Positions 5,776 through 60,795 of a DNA stretch of 64,000 bases are shown here, piece by piece. Numbering within the stretch: the first letter of the stretch is position 1; each line of letters starts with the position of its first letter. The stretch comes from Patescibacteria group bacterium (lineage in GTDB: Bacteria; Patescibacteriota; Kazan-3B-28). The position numbers and the translations under genes are program-made. The DNA lies in the NCBI GenBank assembly GCA_041649135.1, contig JBAZNQ010000001.1:445438-509437 (forward strand), read 5' to 3'. The notes beneath the pieces are model-generated. The model was not told the DNA's origin and ran no database searches. It saw only the letters and a list, made by a program, of their open reading frames with translations.

Positions 5776-6065
5776 AAGAATCCCAAAGTAATACTTTTCT
5801 ATTATACCCCCGCCTCATAGGTGTTGGACTTAGTATACTTTGTGATACTTTATCATACTTTTATATACTTCCAGAGCGACTTTTTTTGACATTTATTATA
5901 TATGTGTTCTAAAATAATAGTAGAAAACCACAATTAGGTAATTAAGGAAACTAACGAGTTTCTTTTGCTGCACGGGAAACCCCGGACAAAAGCAGAAGCC
6001 AGTCAAGGCTGGCCAAAATGCATTGCCGGGTTTTTATACATATTAGTTAATTGAAGGAGGTCAGC

Positions 6066-6605
6066 ATGAAAGTGGTAATCACGTCAGATATAAAAAACGA
6101 AATTAAAATGCTACAAAGAATGGTCCCGTGGCTACAGCGAGGCAATTTAGAAGAAATCAGTCTCAAGCCAAATCATCCAGCCGTTGTTACCCACTTCCCT
6201 CTGAGCGAGGCGGTTAACAGTGAAACCACCGTTGCCAGGTTAGTCAAAAGAGGTCGAAGACTTTTTCTGGTCATTGATAAGTTAGAGATTAATATGGAAC
6301 TGCAGGAGTTCCAGTCCGACTCTCGTGCCAATATTCTAATGAATTACCTGCTTGAGCAGCGACCCGGAGAAATAATCAACATCCTGGAGTTACCCGATTC
6401 AATTCATGAGATTAGCGGACTGAAACTCAGAGACACTTTCCGAAAGATGCACCACTGGAAAGCATTTGAGAAGTACTTCATGCTCAAAAATACCAAACAA
6501 GATTTTGGGATTAGCAATCAGATATTTTTGACTCCACTAGAGACCAACCAGCTCCTCAAAGCATTTAATATCAAATGGCAAGAACCGGAACAAACAAGTA
6601 AATAA
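6066..6605 (+). CDS. Hypothetical protein
   Basis: ATG with a GGAGG RBS 6 nt upstream. It is the first gene of a plus-strand phage-like block. Confidence 0.5.
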   Translation: MKVVITSDIKNEIKMLQRMVPWLQRGNLEEISLKPNHPAVVTHFPLSEAVNSETTVARLVKRGRRLFLVIDKLEINMELQEFQSDSRANILMNYLLEQRPGEIINILELPDSIHEISGLKLRDTFRKMHHWKAFEKYFMLKNTKQDFGISNQIFLTPLETNQLLKAFNIKWQEPEQTSK

Positions 6606-8022: not shown

Positions 8023-8435
8023 AAACAATGAGCCAAAAAGAAGAAGTGTTGGAAATTCTCCGTCGAACACCCATCGTGGCCACAGCTTGTCAGAAATGTG
8101 GCATCAGTCGCGCGACCCTTTACCGTTGGAAACAAGAAAGTAAAACCTTCGCTCAGCAAGTGGACAAGGCATTAGCTGAGGGCTGCGACTTGATTAACGA
8201 CCTTGCCGAGTCTCAACTTTTGACGGCGATTAAAAATCAGAATCTCACCAGCATCATGTTCTGGCTCCGCAACAGACATTCGTCCTACGCCGAGAAGTTG
8301 CAGGTGATGGCACAAGTAGAACACAAGAATGCTACGTTGACACCAGCCCAACGAGCAATCATCAAAAAAGCATTCACGCTGGCCGGAATCTATAAGAATA
8401 AATTAATTGGAGGTAAAAATGTCGGATCAAAATGA
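8019..8435 (+). CDS. Phage terminase small subunit-like HTH protein
   Basis: ATGA overlap with the upstream gene. HTH (ATACQKCGISRATLYRWKQ). Sits immediately upstream of the large terminase. Confidence 0.55.
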   Translation: MKTMSQKEEVLEILRRTPIVATACQKCGISRATLYRWKQESKTFAQQVDKALAEGCDLINDLAESQLLTAIKNQNLTSIMFWLRNRHSSYAEKLQVMAQVEHKNATLTPAQRAIIKKAFTLAGIYKNKLIGGKNVGSK

Positions 8436-9960
8436 ACTACAAATTTTAATCAGTCAAATCATTAACAACCAAAAACTGCGAACAGAGGCGACGCGTAAAA
8501 ATCATTTTCTATTTTTCCACACGTACTTGGCTGATCACGTCGAATATTCAACGGCTCCCTTTCAGAAAGAAATGTTCGAACTAACCCAAGATGAAAAGTT
8601 AACATTCCTAGTGATTTGCGCTTTTCGAGGTTCGGCAAAGTCAACCTATATGAGTTTGTCATATCCGCTATGGGCGATTATGGGCGACCAGCAACGCAAG
8701 CACATCCTGATTACCAGTAAAACTCAATCGATGGTTAAACGAATCTTCGATAACCTCCGTAAGGAACTCAATGAAAACGCCTTGTTGAAATCCGACATGG
8801 GTCCTTTCCAGAGCGAACGAACCCAATGGGGTGGCGGTACATTGGAGCTAGAGAAATACGGAGCTCGAATTACTGTGGCATCCGTTGACGAGGGCATTCG
8901 AGGAATTCGACACGGAAAACATCGTCCCGACCTGATTATTGCGGACGATGTAGAGGACTTGGGTTCGGTTAGGACTAGGGAGGGTCGAGATAAAACCTAT
9001 GACTGGTTCAATGGCGACCTAATCCCAGCTGGCAGTAGGAACACTCGGATTATCGTCATTGGGAATTTGCTACACGAAGATTCACTCATTATGCGGTTGA
9101 GAGAAGAGATTAAGACCGGTAAGCGAGATGGCTTATTCAGGTTCTACCCTCTATTTGGGACTAACGGTGATTGTTTATGGCCAGGCAAATACCCCGACCA
9201 GACCAATATTGATGCCGAAAGAAAAAAGTTGGGTGATCCAGCCGCTTGGAGCCGAGAATATCTGCTAAAAATCATTTCGGATTCGGAACGAGCGGTTCAT
9301 CCGGGATGGATACATTACTACGACAAACTCCCACCTCATCGCAGCGAAAACCACAAGACAGATTTACGGTACATTGGCATTGCGGTTGACTTAGCCATCT
9401 CCGAAAAAGCATCGGCTGACTATACCGCCATAGTGTGCGGAGCCGTTTATGGTCGTGGTGAAGATATGAAAATCTATATCTTACCCGATGCGATAAACAA
9501 ACGGATTAATTTCCCCACCGTTAAGCACACCGCCACTAAGCTATGTGATGATTTTAAAGATCAAGGCTATGCCATCAAGTTGTGGTTCGACAATACTTCT
9601 TTTCAGGATGCATTCGGTCAGGACTTAGAGCTTATGGGGATTAAGGCCGAAGGATGCCCCACTCAAGGCAGTGACAAACGGACAAGGTTATCGATGACCA
9701 CTCATTTAATTCAGGAGGGCCGAATACTGTTCCCAAAACAGGGAGCCAGACCGCTCATATTACAGTTAATTGGCTTTGGTGTAGAAAAACACGACGACTT
9801 GGCCGACGCTTATACCATCCTGGCGCTGATGGCGATGAAACATAATAAACCCGACACCAACCCAATCTGTGCAAGATGGGACCGAGGTCCCTCTATAAAG
9901 GAAGATTATCTTCGAGGGTCAGGTGGTAGGGGCGGTTACCCATGGCATAGGATACTCTGA
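8419..9960 (+). CDS. Phage terminase large subunit
   Basis: Walker A FRGSAKST, Walker B LIIADDVED, and a C-terminal RNaseH-like nuclease (AVDLAISEK…DYTAIV; HDDLADAY). GGAGG RBS before ATG 8419. Confidence 0.8.
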   Translation: MSDQNELQILISQIINNQKLRTEATRKNHFLFFHTYLADHVEYSTAPFQKEMFELTQDEKLTFLVICAFRGSAKSTYMSLSYPLWAIMGDQQRKHILITSKTQSMVKRIFDNLRKELNENALLKSDMGPFQSERTQWGGGTLELEKYGARITVASVDEGIRGIRHGKHRPDLIIADDVEDLGSVRTREGRDKTYDWFNGDLIPAGSRNTRIIVIGNLLHEDSLIMRLREEIKTGKRDGLFRFYPLFGTNGDCLWPGKYPDQTNIDAERKKLGDPAAWSREYLLKIISDSERAVHPGWIHYYDKLPPHRSENHKTDLRYIGIAVDLAISEKASADYTAIVCGAVYGRGEDMKIYILPDAINKRINFPTVKHTATKLCDDFKDQGYAIKLWFDNTSFQDAFGQDLELMGIKAEGCPTQGSDKRTRLSMTTHLIQEGRILFPKQGARPLILQLIGFGVEKHDDLADAYTILALMAMKHNKPDTNPICARWDRGPSIKEDYLRGSGGRGGYPWHRIL

Positions 9961-29640: not shown

Positions 29641-29818
29641 TAGTGAGTCCCATAAGCTCCTCAACCTATACGCTGTAGCCCAAGGTGAAAGCCTGAAAAG
29701 CGCCATAGAGCATCTCATCAACTCTGCAATTGAAGCCGACTCAGAGCTTCAGCCACTTTTCATTCAGCTTGCCAACCACTCTGCAACAAAACCAGCAGAA
29801 CCTGCTGGACTTAAATAA
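29615..29818 (+). CDS. Small ribbon-helix-helix-like DNA-binding protein
   Basis: KLVRVSSESHKLLNLYAVAQGESLKSAIEHLI is RHH/Arc-like. Sits immediately upstream of the recombinase. Confidence 0.35.
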   Translation: MKDKLVRVSSESHKLLNLYAVAQGESLKSAIEHLINSAIEADSELQPLFIQLANHSATKPAEPAGLK

Positions 29819-29846
29819 AAACTTCGAGTATTGGTTTGTGTTGACT

Positions 29847-31451
29847 ATGAAATATATTCTCTACGCTAGAAAGTCCTCAGAAAGTGAAGACCGACAAGTA
29901 CTGTCGGTGGATTCGCAAATTCAAGAATTAAAGGCATTAGCCAAACGCAATGGTCAGCAAATAGTAGCTGTCCTTCAGGAATCGATGTCAGCCAAAGACC
30001 CAGAAAAGAGGCCAGTATTTGAAGAAATGGTAGATAGGATCAAGGGCGGAGAAGCTCAAGGTATTATCTGCTGGAAACTCGACCGATTAGCCCGCAATCC
30101 CGTTGATGGTGGAACAATCCAATGGATGCTCCAAAGAGGCGATGTCACGCACATTCAGACAGCTGATAGAAGTTATTACCCCAGCGACAATGTACTTCTG
30201 ATGAGTGTGGAGCTTGGTATGGCAAATCAGTTTATTCGAGACTTAAGTCAAAACACCAAAAGAGGTCTACGCGCAAAGGCAGCTCAAGGACACTATCCTG
30301 GCTATTCAACTATTGGATATATGCACGACCCTCTAGTCCCTAAGGGGAAAAAATATATCATCCCCGACCCAGAACGATTCTCGATTGTCCAACGAATGTT
30401 GCGACTAATAATTGATGGGGAAGCTAACCCACCTCAGGCACTAAAGGTCGCCACAGAAGAATGGGGTCTTAGAAGTAGGCTCGGCAACAAGTTGCCACAA
30501 AGTACTATCTATCGAATCATCAAAGATCCTTTTTACGCAGGATACTATGAATACCCTAAAGCCAGTGGTAATTGGTTTGATGGACTACATGAGGCAATGA
30601 TTACCAGAAGCGAGTACGACACACTCCAAGCAATTATGAAACGACCAAGTAGAACCCGTCCCAAAACCCTAATCTTTGCCTATACTGGCCTAATCTACTG
30701 TGGAGAATGTGGTGGTATGGTCACTGCCGAAATAAAAAGAAAGGTCTTAAAGAATGGGGAAATCAGAATCTACATCTACTATCACTGCACCAAGCGGAAA
30801 AATCCTAACTGCACTCAAAAGTGCATTACCGAAGAGGAGCTAGAATCTCAACTCGTAGCCATTCTTAAGCGAGTAGAACTCCCAGAGGATTTCAGCGAGT
30901 GGGTCATCAAGCAACTAGAGCTCATGAACCGCCAATCTGCCGAAAACCGCCAAGCCATATTGCGCGACCTGCAAGCTAACTACCAAAATTGCACCAAGCG
31001 TATCGACACCCTTATAGACATGCGTACTTCCGAAGCTATAACTTCAGAAGAGTTTGATACCAAGAAAGTTCAGCTACTAGCCGAAAAGGAACGAATCCAC
31101 GAGCTCCTGAATGACAAGGATCGCGATGTTAACCAGACCGTGGTTAGAACCGAGACAATCATAAGATTAGCCGAGCAAGCCACCCTTAAGCTCAAAACTG
31201 GTAGCATTCTCGAGAAGAAGCGTCTAGTATCCCAATTATGTTCGAACCTGACACTGCTAGACAATAAGCTCACCCTAGAAGTAGAAAAACCATTTTCTAT
31301 CGCAGAACGGCTGGCCACAGAAGTGCATGCCATTGCTGAAGGGTTAGAACCGCAAAAAGACCGCTCACAGAGCGACCTTATTGCCGAAAAACTAGTTGAT
31401 TCTGATAACTGGCTCCCGCGGCTGGATTCGAACCAGCGACCCATCGCTTAA
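29847..31451 (+). CDS. Large serine recombinase; the 3' end overlaps tRNA-Asn on the opposite strand
   Basis: YARKSS, DRLARN and a C-x2-C…YYHC zinc ribbon. Start taken at MKYILYARK. Confidence 0.85.
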   Translation: MKYILYARKSSESEDRQVLSVDSQIQELKALAKRNGQQIVAVLQESMSAKDPEKRPVFEEMVDRIKGGEAQGIICWKLDRLARNPVDGGTIQWMLQRGDVTHIQTADRSYYPSDNVLLMSVELGMANQFIRDLSQNTKRGLRAKAAQGHYPGYSTIGYMHDPLVPKGKKYIIPDPERFSIVQRMLRLIIDGEANPPQALKVATEEWGLRSRLGNKLPQSTIYRIIKDPFYAGYYEYPKASGNWFDGLHEAMITRSEYDTLQAIMKRPSRTRPKTLIFAYTGLIYCGECGGMVTAEIKRKVLKNGEIRIYIYYHCTKRKNPNCTQKCITEEELESQLVAILKRVELPEDFSEWVIKQLELMNRQSAENRQAILRDLQANYQNCTKRIDTLIDMRTSEAITSEEFDTKKVQLLAEKERIHELLNDKDRDVNQTVVRTETIIRLAEQATLKLKTGSILEKKRLVSQLCSNLTLLDNKLTLEVEKPFSIAERLATEVHAIAEGLEPQKDRSQSDLIAEKLVDSDNWLPRLDSNQRPIA

Positions 31452-31484
31452 CAGGCGATTGCTCTACCGCTGAGCTACACGGGA
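31410..31484 (-). tRNA. tRNA-Asn (GTT)
   Basis: Manual fold: acceptor UCCCGUG/CGCGGGA, anticodon loop CTGTTAA, T-loop TTCGAAT, encoded CCA. Confidence 0.75.
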
Positions 31485-31503
31485 ATAACAAACTGCCTAC
31501 GGC

Positions 31504-31560
31504 AGTTAATATCCAATTTCCAATATCCAATTCTCAAGTGTCCAATATCCAATGCCCAAT
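31504..31560. repeat. CCAAT heptad tandem array (CCAATNN x ~7)
   Basis: 7-bp periodic. An inverted partner lies at 31941-31966. Confidence 0.7.
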
Positions 31561-31562
31561 AA

Positions 31563-31940
31563 TCAAGAAGCAGAGACTTTAGCTATCATTTTGTTTTTGA
31601 TGGTCGCCAGTATTTTAACTATTTCTTGCCCTTCCGTAAACACCCCATCAAGAGCCAATAAGTCAACCGATTTTCGAACCTTTAGTATTCTCAACCAGTA
31701 CAGTGTCTCCTTAGCCTCTTTTAGAGCAATTGAGAGTTTATGTATAAAGTCTTTGTCCGACTGCGCTTCGCTTGCCTCCATCATATTGGCAGCGATTGAG
31801 GTAGCTGACCGTACCAACTGGCCAACGAGAGGACGAGATCTAAAATCTAGCACTACACCGTCAGTCAGTTGCAAAACTCGGTCAGCCAATGCTTCACAGC
31901 GATCATAAATATCAATTTTGTTTCCAGCTCGTTCCCCCAT
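31563..31940 (-). CDS. Four-helix-bundle protein (23S rRNA intervening-sequence protein family)
   Basis: IANMMEASEAQSDKDFIHKLSIALKEAKETLYWLRI signature. Confidence 0.7.
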   Translation of the reverse strand: MGERAGNKIDIYDRCEALADRVLQLTDGVVLDFRSRPLVGQLVRSATSIAANMMEASEAQSDKDFIHKLSIALKEAKETLYWLRILKVRKSVDLLALDGVFTEGQEIVKILATIKNKMIAKVSAS

Positions 31941-31966
31941 TGAATATTGGAGATTGGATATTAAGT
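31941..31966. repeat. Inverted CCAAT heptad array (ATTGGAGATTGGATATT)
   Basis: Reverse complement of the 31504-31560 array. Confidence 0.65.
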
Positions 31967-31974
31967 CGAAAGAT

Positions 31975-33744
31975 TTATTTTAGGTAATCCTTGAGTTTTT
32001 TAGAATCTTTCGACTTTCTTAGCTTCATCAATGCCTTGGCTTCTATCTGCCGAATACGCTCACGCGTCACCCCGAATTCCTTCCCCACTTCTTCCAAGGT
32101 ATGCGCCCATTCGCCACTTAAACCAAACCGCAGCTTCAGGATTTTTTGCTCTCTGGGCGACAGCAAGTCCAATACTCCACCCACATCTCCCTTCAGCAAC
32201 TCGTAAGCTGAAGCCTCTTCTGGCGTCAGACTATCCTCGTCTTGGATAAAGTCACCAAGCAAAGAATCATCTTCATCGCCCACCGATTTTTCTAAGCTCA
32301 CGGTTTCCTGCGAAATTTTTAATATGTGATTGACCTTCTCCACTTCCAATTCCATTTCATTAGCAATTTCCTCCGGAGTCGGCTCACGACCTAATTCCTG
32401 CACTAGTTGTCGTTGGGTTCTGGCCAGTCTATTCATCGTTTCTACCATATGAACTGGAATGCGAATCGTTCTGGCTTGGTCAGCAATTGCTCTGGTAATT
32501 GCCTGCCGGATCCACCAAGTCGCATATGTAGAAAACTTAAACCCGCGTCGCCAGTCGAATTTCTCCACCGCTTTCATCAGCCCGATGTTGCCCTCTTGGA
32601 TCAAATCCAACAGCGACAATCCTCGGCCAATATATTTCTTTGCGATCGATACCACCAACCGCAAGTTGGCTTCGGCCAGTTGTTTCGAGGCTAACGTATC
32701 GCTCTGCTCCACTCGTTTCGCTAGTGCGACCTCTTCTTCGGCCCGCAATAGTGGCACCTGACCAATTTCTTTCAAATACATCCGTACCGAGTCATCACTA
32801 ATATCATCTTCCAATAAATGCGGATCGATCTTGATTTCCAACTTATTCCGCATTTTCTTTTGCGTTGCCTCGGTTTTCTTGCTCATCTTGTTGTCATCCG
32901 CCAACGCCCAAATCAAATCATCCCGCACATCCACTACCTCAATACCCTCTTCCATTAATAATTGGAAAAGTTGATCAAGCAGTTCTATCTGTTTTTCGAC
33001 ATTTGGAATTACCTTCTCAAGTTCCTGTTGAGTAATAAAACCCTTCGCCTTACCCGCCGATACTAGATCAGCCAACGGACCGGGCAGATTACCAATTCCT
33101 GATTCCTTGCGTTTACGCTTCTTCTTTGCCTTCTCTTCTTCCTCGTCTTCAATCTCAAAAATCTTCAGCTTAGGTTCCTCTGGAATTGGTTCGCCCAACA
33201 ATTCCTCTTCCGCTCCCTTGCGACCACGCTTTGTTGGCTTAGCAACCTTGGCTGGTGCAGAATGCTTGACGTTCTTTTTTACCACCTTTTTGACCGCCAG
33301 AGAACGTTTGACGTTCTTCTTCGGCTTTGCTTTTTTCGCCAGCTTCTTCACCACCTTCTTCTTGGCTTTCATCCCGAGCTTGCCGAGAGACTTCGCCAGT
33401 TTTTTAACTATCTTCTTTTTCACCACCTTCTTCGCCATTTTTTTCTTAACTACCTTCTTGGCCAATCGCTTTTGAATCGCCCGTTTCGGGGCGGTCTTTT
33501 TCACAGCCGGCTTTTTAATCGGTTTCTTCTTGACCACTTTTTTTGCTACTTTTTTACCTACCTTTTTTACAGACTTCTTAGATTTCATCCCGAGCCTGCC
33601 GAGGGACTTTGTCGGCTTTTTCCCGACGGTCGCTCGTTTCCGAACCACCGCCCGTCGCAGACCCTTCGTAGCTTTAGCGGAGTAGGGTTTACCCGTCGCA
33701 CCACGAGTTGCTTTCTTTTTCACAAGCTTTTTTTTGCTCGCCAT
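31975..33744 (-). CDS. rpoD: RNA polymerase sigma-70 factor RpoD with a ~200-aa Lys/Ala-rich histone-H1-like N-terminal extension
   Basis: Region 2-4 motifs ([27 protein letters not shown]; [19 protein letters not shown]). KKVVKKK repeats at the N-terminus. Confidence 0.9.
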
Positions 33745-35606: not shown

Positions 35607-35804
35607 ATCCTTGCTCCAAATTCTAATTTCGAATCTCTAAATTCTAAACAAATCCCAAACTCTAACTTCCTAAACTGTTTCTCATGCGTCATCCCCGAAC
35701 CGACAACGATAGCACGTCGATATCGGGGATCCAGACAAAAACAGAAACATTTTTATTTTTAAGGTCTAGATCCCCGCCTTCGCGGGAATGACAACCAAGG
35801 AGGA

Positions 35805-35935
35805 CTCTACTCTCTACTCTCTACTCTCTACTCTCTACTCTCTACTCTCTACTCTCTACTCTCTACTCTCTACTCTCTACTCTCTACTCTCTACTCTCTA
35901 CTCTCTACTCTCTACTCTCTACTCTCTACTCTCTA
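35805..35935. repeat. Perfect heptanucleotide microsatellite (CTCTACT) x ~18
   Basis: Seen directly. The ORF-track entry 35788..36003 is a translation of it. Confidence 0.95.
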
Positions 35936-36515
35936 GCGTACCCACTGCCTCCACTATCTCCCCCCAGTTGTCAGCCCGAAGCACCGATGCCGGCAGCCGA
36001 TGATAGCCATTCCAAGGTTTGTTCATAACTATCAATCTTACTCCATGTTTCATCAAAGACTCCACATGCCGAGTATCGTCGTCTATCAGCACCTCACACC
36101 CTAGCCGTTCACATACCTCCCCCTTAGTCAAAGTTGGACTCCCATCTTTGGAGTAGCTATTAGTAAATTCAACCATCTTGAATGAATTGGGGAAGTTTCT
36201 GCCCAACCAATCATAAGTAATTTTCTGCACCACATTCTGTCTGCCAGTTACCACGTATAACTCGTGATCTTTTATCAACTCCTCAATTCCTTCTTGCGCA
36301 CCTGCTACCACCGGTAAATTTTGATAACTCTCTGTCTCAAAGAATCTATGGATATCATCAATCGCTTCCTCTAATGTATTCCCCAGAAATATTGGCCAAT
36401 GAGAATCCATCGCATCGTCAAAAGTCCACTCCGTACCATACTGCAGGTTATACCACTTCAAAAATTCCCGAATCTCCTCCGCCAGCACTTCATCTAAATC
36501 AACCGCAATTTTCAT
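35919..36515 (-). CDS. HAD-superfamily 5'(3')-deoxyribonucleotidase (NT5C-like)
   Basis: HAD motif I MKIAVDLDEVL at the preferred N-terminus. The longer ORF 35919..36587 probably over-extends. Confidence 0.55.
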   Translation of the reverse strand: MKIAVDLDEVLAEEIREFLKWYNLQYGTEWTFDDAMDSHWPIFLGNTLEEAIDDIHRFFETESYQNLPVVAGAQEGIEELIKDHELYVVTGRQNVVQKITYDWLGRNFPNSFKMVEFTNSYSKDGSPTLTKGEVCERLGCEVLIDDDTRHVESLMKHGVRLIVMNKPWNGYHRLPASVLRADNWGEIVEAVGTLESRE

Positions 36516-36526
36516 GCTGCAGTCTT

Positions 36527-37024
36527 TTAAACTCTCGCAAACAAAATCATATAATTGTTGCCAAACTTCTGGGCGCACTTCGGACAATAGGCGTAGTGAA
36601 TATAATATTCCTTTGCCTTTTTATTCTGGCCAGCCAAATACTGGTTCATCTGCCCAATGAATTTTGGGATAGAGTTATACCCGCCATCAAACACCTTAGC
36701 CACAAACGTCCCAGACAATGTTACATTTTTAGCATCGGGCACCACCCCAGTGGTTGAAATATGAATGTCGGACCGAAACGCCGTTGGATCCGAAAACAGC
36801 ACCAAAACACTTCCCTTGTCCTCCGCCACCATTTTGGCATCCTCCACCATTTTCCACATCTTGGTAATTTTGCTACCGATCATTGAAGGAAGTGGCATAT
36901 GAAAAAACGTCGGGATACTTTCCTTGATAAACGGCTTATTCTCCCAATTAAATTCTTTCCCGTCCCACCGAGCCACATCGAACTGCGGGCAACACACCTG
37001 ATCGTTCTGAAGTTGGTTATTCAT
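36527..37024 (-). CDS. Hypothetical protein
   Basis: 165-aa ORF. Confidence 0.4.
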   Translation of the reverse strand: MNNQLQNDQVCCPQFDVARWDGKEFNWENKPFIKESIPTFFHMPLPSMIGSKITKMWKMVEDAKMVAEDKGSVLVLFSDPTAFRSDIHISTTGVVPDAKNVTLSGTFVAKVFDGGYNSIPKFIGQMNQYLAGQNKKAKEYYIHYAYCPKCAQKFGNNYMILFARV

Positions 37025-37470: not shown

Positions 37471-37491
37471 AATTTCTCCTGGCGGAGGGTG

Positions 37492-37581
37492 AGGGATTCG
37501 AACCCTCGAGGGGCTTGCGCCCCAAACCGCTTTCCAAGCGATCGCCATAGACCGCTAGGCGAACCCTCCAATTAAACGCTC
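37492..37581 (-). tRNA. tRNA-Ser (GGA), long variable arm
   Basis: Manual fold: acceptor GGAGGGU/ACCCUCC, anticodon loop TTGGAAA, variable arm GGGGCGCAAGCCCC, encoded CCA. Confidence 0.75.
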
Positions 37582-37597
37582 CACGTTAATATTCAAT

Positions 37598-37660
37598 ATC
37601 CAATCTCCAATTTTTCAACCATCATAGCCCCATTGGACATTGGGCATTGGACATTAGCCC
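37598..37660. repeat. Inverted pair of CCAAT heptad arrays (TTAATATTCAATATCCAATCTCCAAT … ATTGGACATTGGGCATTGGACATT) with a ~20-bp spacer
   Basis: Matches the arrays flanking the four-helix-bundle gene. Confidence 0.7.
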
Positions 37661-37723
37661 GTAGGACTCTCCCTACTCCCAACTGCCCATATTATACCTG
37701 TCCCATTCATTGGCCGACAGCAA

Positions 37724-38693: not shown

Positions 38694-38763
38694 CATCACT
38701 GTTCACTATTAACTATTCACTCTTCACCCCTCACTATTAATTATTAACCATTAACTAACCCCT
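38694..38763 (+). promoter_or_regulatory. Heptad-periodic leader (TTCACTA/TTAACTA x ~9) directly abutting the rpsF start codon, with no Shine-Dalgarno
   Basis: 7-bp periodicity, seen directly. Confidence 0.7.
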
Positions 38764-40747: not shown

Positions 40748-40785
40748 CTCTAGTGGCTAGTGGCTAATCCCTAAACTCTAACTTT
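40748..40785 (+). promoter_or_regulatory. Heptad-periodic leader (CTAGTGG CTAGTGG CTAATCC CTAAACT CTAACTT) abutting the efp start codon
   Basis: A 25-mer is identical to 62762-62787. Confidence 0.65.
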
Positions 40786-42037: not shown

Positions 42038-42073
42038 AAACCCCAGCACATTTTGATTATTGGTTATTGGTAA
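42038..42073 (+). promoter_or_regulatory. Heptad-periodic (ATTGGNN) leader abutting the ychF start codon
   Basis: TTATTGG TTATTGG TAATTGA TTATTAA. Confidence 0.6.
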
Positions 42074-43183
42074 TTGATTATTAACTCTATGAGTTTAAAA
42101 ATTGGTATCGTTGGCCTCCCCAACGTCGGGAAATCTACTTTATTTAATGCTCTACTTGGTGCCAACCAAGCAACGGCTTCCAATTTCCCGTTCTGTACTA
42201 TCGAACCGAACACCGGCATCGTTCCCGTTCCCGATGCTCGTCTGGCCAAACTCTCCGAGCTGGAACATTCAGCTCAAATCGTCCCTGCTACCGTTGAGTT
42301 TGTGGATATTGCCGGTCTTGTGCGCGGCGCCTCCCAAGGTGAAGGATTAGGCAACAAATTCCTTTCTCATGTTCGCGAAGTGGACGCCATCCTTGAAGTC
42401 GTTCGTTTGTTTTCCGATTCCAATGTCACCCATGTTAGCGGCGATATTTCGCCCAAAGACGATATTGAGATCATCAATACCGAGCTTATTCTTGCCGACC
42501 TACAAAGTATGGAGGGACGCTTAGTCAAAGAAGAAAAGGCTGCCCGCGGCGATGCCAAACTTCAGCCCAAAGTAGATTTCTTTCTAAGAGTCCAAGAACA
42601 TTTAGGTAACGGTCTACCCGCTCGCTCAATGAACTTGTCTGACACAGAGCTCCTGTGGTTAAAAGAACTTCAGCTCATTTCCGCCAAACCCATTCTTTAC
42701 ATCGCTAATATCGACGGTACCCAAATCAAAGATGCCGTTACCCTTCTCAACCCAGTTCACGAACTTGTTACCAAAGACAACGCCGAGATTATCGCCATTG
42801 ACGCCAAGACTGAAGCCGAAGTCGTAGAACTTACGCCAGAAGAACGCATCGATTATCTTCGCGAAGCTGGTATTACCGAGTCAGGCTTGGACAAGGTTAT
42901 CCGTGCCGGCTACAAGTTACTCGGTCTCATCACCTATTTCACCGCCGGCGAAAAAGAAACCCGCGGTTGGACTATTCACAATGGCGATACCGCTCCCATT
43001 GCCGCCGGTGCCATTCATACCGATTTCACCAAAGGCTTCATCCGTGCTGAAACCGTTGGCTTTAATGATTTCATCAACAACGGCGGTTGGATCGGTGCCA
43101 AAACTGCTGGAAAGGTCCGAAGTGAAGGCAAAGACTACGTCGTTAAAGACGGCGATGTCATGCTCTTCCGCTTCAACGTGTAA
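42074..43183 (+). CDS. ychF: Ribosome-binding ATPase YchF (Obg-family GTPase)
   Basis: G1 motif GIVGLPNVGKSTLFNAL and a TGS C-domain. Confidence 0.9.
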   Translation: MIINSMSLKIGIVGLPNVGKSTLFNALLGANQATASNFPFCTIEPNTGIVPVPDARLAKLSELEHSAQIVPATVEFVDIAGLVRGASQGEGLGNKFLSHVREVDAILEVVRLFSDSNVTHVSGDISPKDDIEIINTELILADLQSMEGRLVKEEKAARGDAKLQPKVDFFLRVQEHLGNGLPARSMNLSDTELLWLKELQLISAKPILYIANIDGTQIKDAVTLLNPVHELVTKDNAEIIAIDAKTEAEVVELTPEERIDYLREAGITESGLDKVIRAGYKLLGLITYFTAGEKETRGWTIHNGDTAPIAAGAIHTDFTKGFIRAETVGFNDFINNGGWIGAKTAGKVRSEGKDYVVKDGDVMLFRFNV

Positions 43184-58277: not shown

Positions 58278-58380
58278 GTGTCATTCTGGTCGCTTCTGCC
58301 GTACGGCAGAAGCGACCAGAATCTTATAATAATAACCCCATCTGTCATCCCGCCATACACTAGTGATGGCGGGATCCAAA
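58278..58380. repeat. Two hairpin-family elements. The first is a perfect 40-bp palindrome (ATTCTGGTCGCTTCTGCCGTACGGCAGAAGCGACCAGAAT); the second is GTCATCCCGCCA…TGGCGGGAT.
   Basis: Seen directly. Upstream of leuS. Confidence 0.7.
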
Positions 58381-60795
58381 TTAAACAAAATTAATAACTC
58401 TGTCCCTCACAAAAATATGTTTGCTGGCACCCTCCGCCACTTTCTTTAGTTTCTCGTTTTGGTTCACCGCCGTCAGAACTTCCGCTTCACTCGCCCCTGC
58501 CGACATTTCAATTGTTCCTCGTAGTTTCCCCTTTTCCTGCACCGCGATCACTACAACTTTCGCCCGCGCTTTTTCGGGATCAAATTTTGGCCAATCAGCA
58601 TCCGTTACACTACCTTGCTGTTGTAACACCACTTGCCATAGCTCCTCCGCCAAATGCGGAGCGAAAGGGTTCAGTAACTTCGCAAAATCTACCAGCCAGT
58701 TGGTACTATCATCCTTGCTCACCTCGTTCACAAATTCCATCATACTGCTAATCGCCGTATTGAATTTTAATTCGGTAATATCTTCAGTTACTTTCTGAAC
58801 CAAACCATGGATGGCATCATTGTCGCCTCCCTTTTCCCCGACCCGCTCACCAATAATTCGATACACCCGTTCCAAGAATTTCCGTACTCCCGAGATACCA
58901 TTCGTATCCCAAGCGATCGCTTGATCAAACGGCCCCATAAACATTTCATACATCCGTACGGCATCAGCTCCATACTGGTCAATTAGTTCATCAGGATTAA
59001 TCACATTCCCCCGACTCTTACTCATCTTTTCCCCATCTGACGCCAAAATTAACCCTTGATGCCGAAGCTTCAAAAACGGCTCATCAAAATCTAAATAACC
59101 TAGTTTGTGCAAAGCCTTGGTAATAAATCTGGCATATAACAAATGTCCGTTGGTATGCTCTGCCCCACCAATATATAAATCTACCGGCATCCAGTATTTC
59201 AAAGACTCTTTACTAGCAAATTTCGTCTCGTTTTTCGGATCGCAATACCGTAAGTAATACCATGACGAACAAACAAAGGTATCCATCGTATCCAGCTCTC
59301 GATGCGCCCCCTTGCCATACTTTTCTTCTACCCCAGCCTGAAAAGTTTTTGAGTAAGCAAGAGGCGATTCACCATGTGGCTTAAAATCAACATCACTCGG
59401 CAACATCACCGGCAAATCCCTTTCATCCACCGCCACCACCTCCCACTCCTCCCCGCCTTTAATTGGTGAGATTGGTGTAGATTGGCGAGATTGTTTAGAT
59501 TCCCCCGCTGGTCGATAGACCACGGGTATTGGTGCTCCCCAATACCGCTGACGCGATATCAGCCAATCGTGTAATTTGTACTGCACCGTCACCTTCCCGC
59601 CAAATTTCTTGGCAATTTTTGCTGCCGCCCCTTTGGAGTCTTGCCCATCAAATTCACCCGAATTCATCAGCTCGCCATGTCCGGCATAAAATTTTTCATC
59701 CGATCCAATAACTTGAACCACCGGCAGATCAAATTTCTTAGCGAATTCAAAATCCCGCTCATCATGCGCTGGCACTGCCATGATCGCTCCCGTGCCGTAA
59801 TCCATCAGCACATAATCCGCAACCCAAATTGGGATCTCTTTTTTCGTAGCTGGATTAATCGCCATCACCCCCTTCAGACAAACCCCACTTTTCTCTTTTT
59901 GTGTCTGACGAGTTAGTGTGTTCTTCCGTCTTGCTTGCTCAATGTAATTTTGTACTTCCTCAAGATTCTGGATGCTAGATGCCAACTGCTGGATCAACTC
60001 ATGTTCAGGAGCTAGCACTAAATAAGTCGCCCCGAACAGTGTATCTGCCCTCGTCGTAAACACCTTGACTCGCGACTCGTTACTCGCGACTCGAAACTCT
60101 ATTTCTGCTCCTTCCGACTTCCCGATCCAATTTCGTTGCCCCGTCTTGGTCGACTCCGGCCAATCTAATTTATCCAACCCCACCAACAGTTCTTCTGCAA
60201 AATCCGTGATCTTGAAAAACCATTGCTTCAGTTTTTTCTGTTCGACTTGGCTGCCGCATCTCTCACAACAACCATTCACCACCTGCTCGTTAGCTAACAC
60301 AGTTTGATCCTTCGGACACCAGTTGGCATAAGCTTCCTTTTGATAAGCCAGTCCGTTGTCATATAAAACTTTGAACACCCACTGTGTCCATTTGTAATAA
60401 CTTGGATCAGCCGTATTCACTTCTCTACTCCAATCGTAGGCAAACCCAAACGATTTCATCTGCTGCGTAAATCGGGCAATATTCTTTTTGGTCGTTTCTG
60501 CCGGTGGTTGTCCGATTTTAATCGCATAGTTCTCCGCCGGCAAACCAAAAGCGTCCCAACCAATTGGGTGTAATACATTGTAGCCCTTCATTCGATAGTA
60601 CCGCGTAAAAATATCTGTCGCCGTAATCCCCCGCGGATGTCCAGTATGTAACCCATCTCCCGATGGATAAGTGAACATATCCAACGCATAAAACTTATGC
60701 GCCTTGTCGCCATCTACTGCCTTAAAAGTCTGGCGCTCTTCCCAATACTTCTGCCACTTCGGCTCAATCTGTTTGTGATCGTATTTGTCTACCAC
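58381..60795 (-). CDS. leuS: Leucyl-tRNA synthetase
   Basis: HIGH-class motif (HTGHPRG) and KMSKS. 804 aa. Confidence 0.95.
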   Translation of the reverse strand: MVDKYDHKQIEPKWQKYWEERQTFKAVDGDKAHKFYALDMFTYPSGDGLHTGHPRGITATDIFTRYYRMKGYNVLHPIGWDAFGLPAENYAIKIGQPPAETTKKNIARFTQQMKSFGFAYDWSREVNTADPSYYKWTQWVFKVLYDNGLAYQKEAYANWCPKDQTVLANEQVVNGCCERCGSQVEQKKLKQWFFKITDFAEELLVGLDKLDWPESTKTGQRNWIGKSEGAEIEFRVASNESRVKVFTTRADTLFGATYLVLAPEHELIQQLASSIQNLEEVQNYIEQARRKNTLTRQTQKEKSGVCLKGVMAINPATKKEIPIWVADYVLMDYGTGAIMAVPAHDERDFEFAKKFDLPVVQVIGSDEKFYAGHGELMNSGEFDGQDSKGAAAKIAKKFGGKVTVQYKLHDWLISRQRYWGAPIPVVYRPAGESKQSRQSTPISPIKGGEEWEVVAVDERDLPVMLPSDVDFKPHGESPLAYSKTFQAGVEEKYGKGAHRELDTMDTFVCSSWYYLRYCDPKNETKFASKESLKYWMPVDLYIGGAEHTNGHLLYARFITKALHKLGYLDFDEPFLKLRHQGLILASDGEKMSKSRGNVINPDELIDQYGADAVRMYEMFMGPFDQAIAWDTNGISGVRKFLERVYRIIGERVGEKGGDNDAIHGLVQKVTEDITELKFNTAISSMMEFVNEVSKDDSTNWLVDFAKLLNPFAPHLAEELWQVVLQQQGSVTDADWPKFDPEKARAKVVVIAVQEKGKLRGTIEMSAGASEAEVLTAVNQNEKLKKVAEGASKHIFVRDRVINFV

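Follow-up and report, generated by a model that had tools for sequence, protein, structure and literature searches.

Inverted heptad arrays enclosing four-helix-bundle genes, and their likeness to an rRNA intervening sequence

Why does a small gene of a protein family named after the intervening sequences (IVSs) of 23S rRNA lie between a sigma factor gene and a tRNA gene, and why is it enclosed there by two arrays of short tandem repeats that face each other? The question arises from a stretch of 64,000 nucleotides of a Patescibacteria group bacterium (the window), in which an open reading frame (ORF) for 125 amino acids on the minus strand (31563..31940) is a member of the PF05635/TIGR02436 four-helix-bundle (4HB; 23S rRNA IVS protein) family. 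It matches PF05635 with an E-value of 6e-20 (71.8 bits, cut-off 33.8) and the TIGR02436 profile with an E-value of 2e-24 (86.1 bits, cut-off 24). The protein also matches the solved pentameric structure PDB 2RLD (E 3e-15), and dN/dS values of 0.06-0.11 against orthologs show purifying selection on the ORF. A preliminary description had proposed that the gene belongs to a mobile or insertable cassette and that an unoccupied copy of its site lies beside a tRNA-Ser gene. We found that the packaging between inverted arrays belongs to the 4HB gene family, and not to tRNAs or to the window locus alone.

Inverted heptad packaging of four-helix-bundle genes

On one side of the window gene, six CCAAT units at 7-nt spacing form two blocks of three (31513-31560), and on the other side ATTGG motifs are found at 31946 and 31953. 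The two arms, 31506-31531 and 31939-31964, constitute a 26-nt inverted repeat in which 24 of 26 positions (92%) are complementary, the matching extends past the CCAAT core, and no longer or better inverted repeat within 4 kb spacing was found in the whole 64-kb window. Tandem Repeats Finder calls a period of 7 at 31508-31561 and, near the tRNA-Ser gene, at 37588-37611 and 37631-37655, so that all three count as intergenic heptamers at the threshold of at least three copies. The flank-pairing score of the window gene is 42, compared with a mean of 15.3 (sd 2.25) and a maximum of 26 in 1000 shuffles (z 11.9), and it ranks first among 55 window genes, the runner-up scoring 23 and the median being 15. 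The gene thus sits between inverted CCAATNN arrays, as the preliminary description had it. Period-7 arrays of other units are common in the intergenic spacers of the window, and it is therefore not the heptads alone that are special, but the inverted arrangement in which they bracket a gene.

Read on the coding strand, the 5′ arm is TTAATAT-CCAAT-CT-CCAAT-AT-TCAATG (31938..31966, minus strand). It takes in the first two bases of the start codon, and the whole ATG is held by the last, degenerate heptad (TTCAATG). The heptamers before the gene, ATCCAAT-CTCCAAT-ATTCAATG, end in the start codon, an arrangement comparable to that of the Coxiella IVS (PMC4990558), and there is no Shine-Dalgarno sequence upstream of it. 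The 3′ arm has two blocks. The distal block, ATTGGATATTGGAAATTGGATATTAA (31506..31531, minus strand), is the 24/26 partner of the 5′ arm and pairs with it in the minimum free energy (MFE) fold of the RNA, and the proximal block, three ATTGG heptads right after the stop codon (31542..31562, minus strand), is an alternative partner (one pairing 87%). At the outer ends there are hairpins. A perfect 13-bp stem with a 28-nt loop (31963..32016, minus strand) spans the rpoD stop codon and abuts the 5′ arm, and a small hairpin with a 7-bp stem, AACTGCC-GTA-GGCAGTT (31491..31507, minus strand), ends 6 nt before the 5′ end of the tRNA-Asn gene. A related locus (L007) has a short hairpin, AACCCTACGGGTT, in place of the outer 5′ hairpin, and at the 3′ terminal position it and two other relatives (L168 and L169) have a hairpin of other sequence.

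The unit is situated directly downstream of rpoD, which encodes sigma-70 (31975..33744, minus strand), and directly upstream of tRNA-Asn(GTT) (31410..31484, minus strand), and the order dnaG-rpoD-[cassette]-tRNA-Asn is kept in relatives. Within 2 kb, the gene neighbours are rpoD, dnaG, tRNA-Asn and a serine recombinase gene. The window cassette is located outside rRNA, since the only Rfam hits in the window are tRNAs and the cassette is flanked by rpoD and tRNA-Asn. The PADLOC and PHROG profiles for anti-phage and phage families gave no match for the 4HB protein.

Two further 4HB paralogs in the same genome both have inverted arrays made of units of their own. One (P0019) is flanked by the gene of an M50 peptidase and by folD and has xxxxCCAAT nonamers upstream and ATTGGxxxx units downstream, which are complementary at 29 of 31 positions. 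The other (P0023) follows lepB and has AGTTAAA-type heptads upstream and TTTTAAC/TTTTCAC heptads downstream (GTTAAAA unit). Neither adjoins a tRNA gene, and both are found inside strings of genes on the same strand.

The packaging recurs across phyla. Our survey comprised 80 loci with 4HB relatives (L008-L087), out of more than 580 candidates recovered with a 19-sequence alignment as the query from contigs of GTDB genomes, one genome per species, and included Patescibacteria, Cyanobacteria, Bacteroidota, Gammaproteobacteria, Planctomycetota, Verrucomicrobiota, Ignavibacteria and Acidobacteriota. Each gene was scored by matching the 130 nt upstream to the reverse complement of the 130 nt downstream, with a threshold of at least 30. 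This score was reached by 69% of the 71 usable independent 4HB loci, as against 3% of 64 neighbouring genes at the same loci (one of these two genes is itself a second 4HB gene) and 5% of the cross-locus pairings; in Mann-Whitney tests the 4HB loci differed from the neighbour genes at p = 1.5e-19 and from the cross-locus pairs at 1e-31. Of 49 arms from many phyla, 43 have a period of 7, and the units vary from locus to locus while the two arms within one locus match. By eye we recognized, for example, CCAATGA/CCAAGGA in 12 copies in Rariglobus, AGTCAAA in 4-5 copies in Scytonema, AAATGTA arms in a Prevotellaceae metagenome-assembled genome (MAG) and AATGACG in Phycisphaerales. Two plasmid-borne genes of Nostoc punctiforme PCC 73102, NPUN_RS35560 (pNPUN02) and NPUN_RS34315 (pNPUN01), are bracketed in the same manner, by CAATTCG x4.5 versus CGAATTG x4.5 in one case and GGTCGGA x4 versus TCCGACC x4 in the other.

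The preliminary description had named two outcomes that would speak against it, namely that other 4HB genes lack the arrays and that the arrays are generic tRNA-promoter elements. The paralogs and the survey loci turned out otherwise on the first count. The tRNA-promoter explanation fell as well, as the two array-bearing paralogs lie away from tRNAs and the Phe/Arg and Ala tRNAs of the window carry no arrays. A reading of the heptads as promoters, from their TTGAC-like cores, was likewise dropped because the orientation of the core, judged by eye, is inconsistent between loci. None of the 40 survey loci that were scanned has its 4HB gene within rRNA. A pattern-based search of IMG/VR recovered no relatives, and a phage collection gave two weak matches only.

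Heptad arrays are also found away from the cassettes. Near-perfect period-7 arrays outside cassettes, counted with 250 nt on each side excluded, occur at 0.080 per kb in the 4HB loci L008-L087 (19 arrays) and at 0.003 per kb in unrelated bacteria (the rpoD loci L091-L167), a density about 25-fold lower in a comparison confounded by phylogeny. None of the 19 arrays is located beside another recognisable 4HB gene, and there is no excess for other periods. TAACTGA arrays are situated near the 4HB genes in L022 and L040, and in other phyla ORF-less inverted heptad hairpins lie close to 4HB genes (L015, L018, L051, L071 and L072).

Some loci have features worth recording in their own right. In N. 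punctiforme, the cassette on pNPUN01 (L173) lies between a TnsA gene and the xisH/xisI excision-factor genes, and in a gammaproteobacterial MAG (L017, 2001-2475) a tRNA gene comes straight after the cassette. The second-highest control in the flank test, in a Kuenenbacteria MAG (L010, 3341-4015), is an IS200/RAYT-like (Y1 transposase-like) gene between inverted copies of the hairpin motif ATCTTACGAGGTTCGACCTCGTAAGAT, which resembles REP/RAYT systems.

The locus in relatives and the element upstream of tRNA-Ser

All close homologs of the window 4HB gene occupy the rpoD–tRNA-Asn site. In L007, where dnaG is 58%, rpoD 78% and the 4HB protein 74% identical to the window, the cassette has CCAATNN arrays, and the same holds for L168 and L169, where the 4HB identities are 68% and 78% (P0007 and P0003), dnaG lies off the contig and rpoD was unscored. 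Among metagenome contigs, a scan for rpoD gave 80 loci, mostly from unrelated bacteria, with L088-L090 being informative. In L088, dnaG and rpoD are as much as 81% and 94% identical and the 4HB gene only 52%, and the cassette has period-8 CAATTNNN arms on both sides. Such arms were also seen on both sides in L171 (4HB identity 52%, P0008; dnaG off contig, rpoD unscored). The remaining two loci have no cassette. In L090 (rpoD identity 73%, dnaG off contig) rpoD is followed after 29 nt by tRNA-Asn, with neither a 4HB gene nor arrays, and in L089 (dnaG 60%, rpoD 68%) the 4HB gene is absent and other genes are found in the spacer between rpoD and tRNA-Asn.

A comparison of orthologous loci, as called for in the preliminary description, thus recovered both presence and absence of the cassette, which is a stable syntenic feature of one clade of the candidate phyla radiation (CPR), absent in the two most distant relatives recovered. 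Since the true empty sites in L090 and L089 have no arrays, the arrays are part of the cassette rather than of the target. They are nearly unchanged across orthologs while synonymous sites are saturated (dS >1.7): the 5′ arm is almost identical in L007, L168 and L169, and one 25-nt arm is exactly identical between the window and L007. No target-site duplication is visible in the comparison of occupied and empty sites, although their sequences are too diverged (rpoD identity 68-73%) for a firm reading. The identities of the 4HB gene run opposite to those of dnaG and rpoD, which points to replacement of the cassette by recombination rather than to simple vertical descent. The evidence for movement therefore consists of an old gain or loss and of an allele tree that conflicts with dnaG and rpoD. 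Of the proposal of a mobile or insertable cassette, the part that stands is that the gene and its arrays act as one unit that may be present or absent; of recent mobility there is no sign, as all close homologs share the site.

The relatives also differ in details around this site. L007 has an extra CCAAT array upstream of the cassette (5927-5952), ending in CCAATGGGGGCTAG, which looks like the 5′ end of a second, truncated cassette, and its 3′ module of array plus hairpin is duplicated (6383-6425 and 6437-6490). In L089, a small GIY-YIG-type ORF (MYTVYVIYNQQHDKIYIGQTESL..., 8157-8533) is located between a partial duplicate of the tRNA-Asn 5′ part and the intact tRNA-Asn, as if its insertion had duplicated part of the tRNA gene.

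What, then, is the element beside tRNA-Ser, where two arrays were said to face each other across about 20 bp with no gene between them? They are indeed there. Upstream of tRNA-Ser(GGA) (37480-37569, minus strand), arrays of the AATATCC type (37588-37611) and the CATTGGA type (37631-37655) face each other across 19 nt and are complementary at 19 of 25 positions. They form part of an ORF-less element in the tRNA-Ser leader (37575..37668, minus strand), which, read on the coding strand, consists of a 5′ hairpin (37656-37668), TAAT, three CCAAT heptads (37631-37655), a ATGGGGCTATGA mini-ORF with a spacer, the ATTGG-type array (37588-37611), ATATTAA and a 3′ hairpin (37575-37587). The start-like end CCAATGGGG and a TGA ahead of the 3′ array have been retained. 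The window and L007 have this composite in common. A small hairpin and TAAT are followed by 3-4 CCAAT heptads that end in ATGGGG, then by 12-25 nt containing an early stop and by an ATTGG-type array that ends in ATATTAA, after which come another small hairpin and the tRNA-Ser gene.

A TATAAT −10 box (37692..37697, minus strand) marks the tRNA-Ser promoter, GGTATAATATGGGCAG, the string of which is identical in L089; a consensus promoter scan had missed it because no good −35 is present. The position of this box places the miniature inside the transcribed tRNA-Ser leader. From TATAAT to tRNA-Ser there are about 32 nt in L089, where the element is absent, and about 122 nt in the window. The same promoter at a different spacing identifies the element as an insertion of about 90 nt in the tRNA leader that has been inherited by two lineages, those of the window and L007. 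The suggestion of an unoccupied or excised site was therefore rejected, since the architecture is conserved in L007, absent in L089 behind the same promoter, and unlike the true empty sites, which carry no arrays. The reading that fits the element best is that of an ORF-less miniature of the cassette.

A putative IVS-type RNA cassette and its alternatives

A published description of the 23S rRNA IVS of Coxiella burnetii, rather than rRNA IVS sequences inspected here, provides the comparison for the anatomy of the unit. The Coxiella IVS is inserted in helix 45, is 428-444 nt long and contains an S23p ORF between terminal inverted repeats with a 28-bp stem; 2-3 tandem GACAGAT heptamers and one degenerate unit stand directly before the ATG, the Shine-Dalgarno sequence is poor, the number of heptamers varies between strains, RNase III cleaves mid-stem at the first repeat, and the ORF is decaying and apparently untranslated (PMC4990558). 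S23p ORFs are also found in the IVSs of Leptospira, Brucella and Haemophilus (cited in PMC4990558). The window cassette shares with it the protein family, the size (about 460 nt), the stem (26 nt with 24/26 pairing, against 28 bp), the heptamers before the ATG and a poor or absent Shine-Dalgarno sequence, and here too the number of heptamers varies, although between relatives and not between strains. Unlike the Coxiella IVS, it is situated between rpoD and tRNA-Asn and not inside 23S rRNA, its ORF is under strong purifying selection rather than in decay, and cleavage by RNase III, which has been shown for Coxiella, is for the window a prediction. The link between the 4HB family and rRNA intervening sequences that was drawn in the preliminary description is real in that the two share this anatomy.

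Our leaning, if only a slight one, is towards an IVS-type 4HB cassette whose arms would pair in the RNA, where RNase III would probably cut. What we observed is the anatomy, the association across phyla, the conservation of the arrays, the purifying selection on the ORF and the presence or absence of the unit among relatives; from these we infer that the unit is co-transcribed, that its arms pair as RNA in vivo and that RNase III cleaves them, as well as any role that the 4HB protein may have. The cassette would be defined as a PF05635 ORF between two complementary tandem-heptad arrays with small hairpins at the outer ends, placed in the transcribed spacer of a putative dnaG-rpoD-tRNA-Asn unit. 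Co-transcription is suggested by the setting: the gap of only 29 nt between rpoD and tRNA-Asn in L090 leaves no room for a separate tRNA promoter, and the cassettes examined in the CPR clade and in this genome lie in the rpoD–tRNA-Asn spacer, in same-strand gene strings or in a tRNA leader. In the transcript, the A/C-rich 5′ array, with its CCAAU units and its end in the start codon, may pair with the U/G-rich 3′ array of AUUGG units, which would enclose the entire ORF in an imperfect duplex of about 25 bp. In the predicted fold of 31485-32020 (minus strand) the arms do pair around the ORF (z −4.1), and in MFE folds long-range pairing of the arms was obtained for eight of eight cassettes, with 17-40 pairs compared with 3-16 when the 3′ flank was shuffled.

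By analogy with Coxiella, RNase III would cut this duplex and thereby free the cassette RNA from the rpoD mRNA on one side and pre-tRNA-Asn on the other. We propose that such excision at the RNA level would make insertion in any transcribed spacer, or in rRNA, harmless to the RNA of the host. The same duplex might mask the leader and the leaderless-like start codon of the 4HB mRNA, and the tRNA-Ser miniature, placed in a tRNA leader, would in any case be removed by RNase P.

Several points weigh against an RNA cassette of this kind. No RNase III signature was found in the 64-kb window, and the presence of the enzyme elsewhere in the genome is assumed. On the sense strand, G.U is not in excess among the mismatches of the arms, and if anything the opposite holds (32 G.U vs 52 A.C at the strictest setting), in a test meant to separate constraint on RNA from constraint on DNA that was uninformative partly through the composition of the arms. 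The arms of several orthologs are short (2-3 heptads) and pair at 5-6 of every 7 positions, and both these and the miniature with its 19/25 complementarity would be marginal substrates for RNase III. A terminator-like hairpin and a weak promoter-like match are located between the arrays and tRNA-Asn, so that the tRNA may be transcribed separately. Finally, the RNA-cassette model gives no reason why the arms are built of tandem heptads rather than of unique sequence.

It is possible that the unit is a module for the control of translation. The A-rich heptad array would then serve as a leader that is independent of a Shine-Dalgarno sequence, with the 3′ array as an anti-leader masking the leader and the start codon after transcription. 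In one version the protein is the reader, and the 4HB protein, as an Avd-like pentamer, might bind heptads in RNA or DNA, regulate its own synthesis and act on other genes led by heptads. This tentative reading draws on placement and homology. The 4HB start codon lies within the last heptad and within the stem; in the window, the arrays at 38698-38757 (rpsF), 40750-40780 and 42053-42082 end 5-6 nt before starts that have no Shine-Dalgarno sequence; TAACTGA repeats in Beggiatoaceae are placed alike, and a translational role has been proposed for them (PMC4679880); and PF05635 is homologous to Avd, the pentamer of diversity-generating retroelements (DGRs) that binds nucleic acid and reverse transcriptase (PMC10053308). 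The roughly 25-fold enrichment of heptamer arrays outside cassettes is in keeping with it too, although confounded by phylogeny as said above, and in some loci (Scytonema L022 and L001) the 5′ array is 55-65 nt away from the ATG, which does not suit a leader. In 42 of 48 loci it is the 5′ arm that is rich in A, but since the A-rich polarity of the inverted repeat is independent of gene orientation it is no proof of leader function, and we have not used it as evidence. Control of translation and processing by RNase III are not mutually exclusive.

Could the arrays rather be terminal inverted repeats of a small non-autonomous DNA element that depends for its movement or exchange on a recombinase or transposase from another locus, or on recombination between arrays? 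On this view, the tRNA-Ser element would be a derivative like a miniature inverted-repeat transposable element (MITE). We consider this unlikely, even though the cassette is present or absent at both sites among relatives and its gene tree conflicts with those of its neighbours, L088 being close in dnaG and rpoD and yet distant in the 4HB gene and its arrays, and L007 the reverse. ORF-less inverted heptad hairpins at other 4HB-bearing loci, copies on conjugative Nostoc plasmids, one of them beside TnsA and XisH/XisI, and older proposals that IVSs are mobile elements or have been left behind by transposition (cited in PMC4990558) also favor movement of DNA. However, the arm units of the three paralog cassettes in this genome are unrelated, so wholly different that no single enzyme could use them as its recognition site, and the window holds only one related ORF-less copy and no near-identical copies. 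Neither site has an evident target-site duplication, no transposase is adjacent, the close homologs are all in one site with no sign of recent movement, and the pattern-based search found no relatives in IMG/VR. To our knowledge, the 4HB fold is not that of any transposase or recombinase, and this we also count against a mobile element.

Very improbable, in our view, is a coincidence in which generic heptamers produced by slippage, or tRNA promoter elements, merely flank the gene. Arrays of many different heptamers are frequent in the spacers of the window, heptamers are the most abundant class of intergenic tandem repeats in prokaryotes (PMC6344855), and a weak promoter-like match, TTGAGA-18-GATATT, lies within the 3′ array. 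Against this, the inverted bracketing is specific to 4HB genes (69% versus 3% of neighbour genes, and the top score in the window), occurs in the two paralogs away from tRNAs while other tRNAs of the window have no arrays, and involves arms that match beyond the CCAAT core and arrays that are conserved at saturated dS.

Known repeat systems and further observations in the window

Other repeat systems resemble the cassettes in part. Heptanucleotides of cyanobacteria, named short tandemly repeated repetitive (STRR) sequences, were reportedly described by Mazel and colleagues in 1990 as CCCCAAT/CCCCAGT (STRR1) and TTGGTCA (STRR2), which would make them circular permutations or complements of CCAATCC and CCAATGA. 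Known from Calothrix PCC 7601 (cited in PMC4692102), they are tandem intergenic heptamers of the same kind as the arrays that bracket the 4HB genes of Nostocales. They have, however, been described as dispersed direct repeats of unknown function, and in the literature searched we found no link to a gene family or to inverted pairing around an ORF. In Xanthomonas, GGGAATC heptamers form 70-75 convergent (inverted) pairs per genome (Rehm et al. 2015, PMC4692102). Close inverted pairs can form stem-loops, the type, whether single array or inverted pair, is kept between species while the length varies, and they resemble the tRNA-Ser miniature, but they are G-rich and have been studied as formers of G-quadruplexes, with no connection made to S23p/4HB genes (PMC4692102). 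The direct TAACTGA heptamers of Beggiatoaceae, Cyanobacteria and Bacteroidetes (MacGregor 2015, PMC4679880), among whose 170 sets one is inverted, end just upstream of start codons and occur in phyla that are rich in 4HB genes; unlike the cassette arms they are almost always direct, and they were not linked to 4HB genes (PMC4679880). PF05635 is furthermore the commonest Pfam family beside DGR reverse transcriptases, and Avd belongs to the same superfamily of 4HB pentamers (PMC10053308). In contrast to Avd, the window gene has no adjoining reverse transcriptase or pair of template and variable repeats, and the neighbourhoods of the two paralogs are also devoid of RVT domains.

By inspection, the unit does not fit an integron gene cassette, as it has repeats on both sides, made of tandem heptads, and is solitary. 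MITEs and REPINs (REP doublets forming hairpins) come in families with many near-identical copies per genome and a cognate transposase. They are similar to the cassettes in being short intergenic elements bounded by inverted repeats and having ORF-less derivatives, but each cassette in the window genome has tandem-heptad arms of its own and no linked transposase.

What was known before, then, are S23p ORFs in rRNA IVSs with inverted repeats and excision by RNase III, the heptamers of the Coxiella IVS, cyanobacterial STRR sequences, inverted GGGAATC pairs (PMC4692102) and abundant intergenic heptamers with “no clear clue” to their function (PMC6344855). In the literature searched, which covers few subscription journals, we found no statement that PF05635 genes are packaged between inverted heptamers outside rRNA across phyla, nor one that links heptamer repeats to PF05635. 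New here, as far as this search goes, are a cassette of IVS type in mRNA and tRNA spacers and the family-wide association. The ORF enclosed in a heptad stem is the usual packaging of 4HB genes in Patescibacteria, Cyanobacteria, Bacteroidota, Planctomycetota, Verrucomicrobiota, Gammaproteobacteria and other phyla, and no curiosity of rRNA.

Two old oddities, the sporadic 23S IVSs with an S23p ORF and the abundant intergenic heptamers, are in this way physically linked, and the origin of the former and the role of the latter become approachable by experiment. The plasmids of Nostoc punctiforme PCC 73102 hold clean examples in a cultivable model, and the 4HB protein, as a homolog of Avd, may be considered a candidate partner of heptad repeats. 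For annotation, the association accounts for small repeat arrays reported beside 4HB genes and indicates that the arrays mark the boundaries of a unit. A more speculative thought, to which we give little credence, is that PF05635 proteins and tandem heptamer arrays might constitute one widespread system, in which the cassettes outside rRNA would be the general form of the 23S IVSs, the ORF-less hairpins their miniatures, and the Avd-like protein a reader of the heptads or a helper in making them. If true, this would give a function and an origin to intergenic heptamers such as STRR, TAACTGA, GGGAATC and others, which have been unexplained since 1990.

On the far side of tRNA-Asn from the cassette, a large serine recombinase gene (29730-31451, plus strand) with Resolvase, Recombinase and Zn-ribbon domains runs into the 3′ half of the tRNA gene, and this overlap suggests an integrative element inserted at tRNA-Asn. 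The region beyond tRNA-Asn varies and is different in every relative, with unannotated genes in L007, DUF5655 in L168, and T5orf172 and an HsdM methylase in L171.

Heptad arrays fill several short intercistronic spacers of the window (38698-38757, 40750-40780, 42053-42082 and 35618-35680), with the units CACTATT, CTAGTGG/CCCTAAA, TTGATTA/TTGGTTA and AAATTCT; the last of these arrays lies 11 nt ahead of the dnaG start, which has a GGAG in front of it. At 35805-35935, a (CTCTACT) array of 18.7 copies with 100% matches is located at, or overlaps, the 3′ end of an NT5C-like gene (35919-36587, minus strand). It is far longer and cleaner than other arrays in the window and has therefore probably expanded recently. 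Short tandem arrays are also found in frame within leuS (58381-60795, minus strand), at 59462-59501 and 60067-60099. One is composed of CCAATCTxx-type units like the arms of the paralog P0019, and the other of GAGTCGC heptads, and their translations read roughly ...SKQSRQSTPISPIK... and ...RVASNESRV.... Between the end of leuS and the neighbouring gene there is a perfect 40-nt palindrome without a loop (ATTCTGGTCGCTTCTGCCGT / ACGGCAGAAGCGACCAGAAT, 58283-58322).

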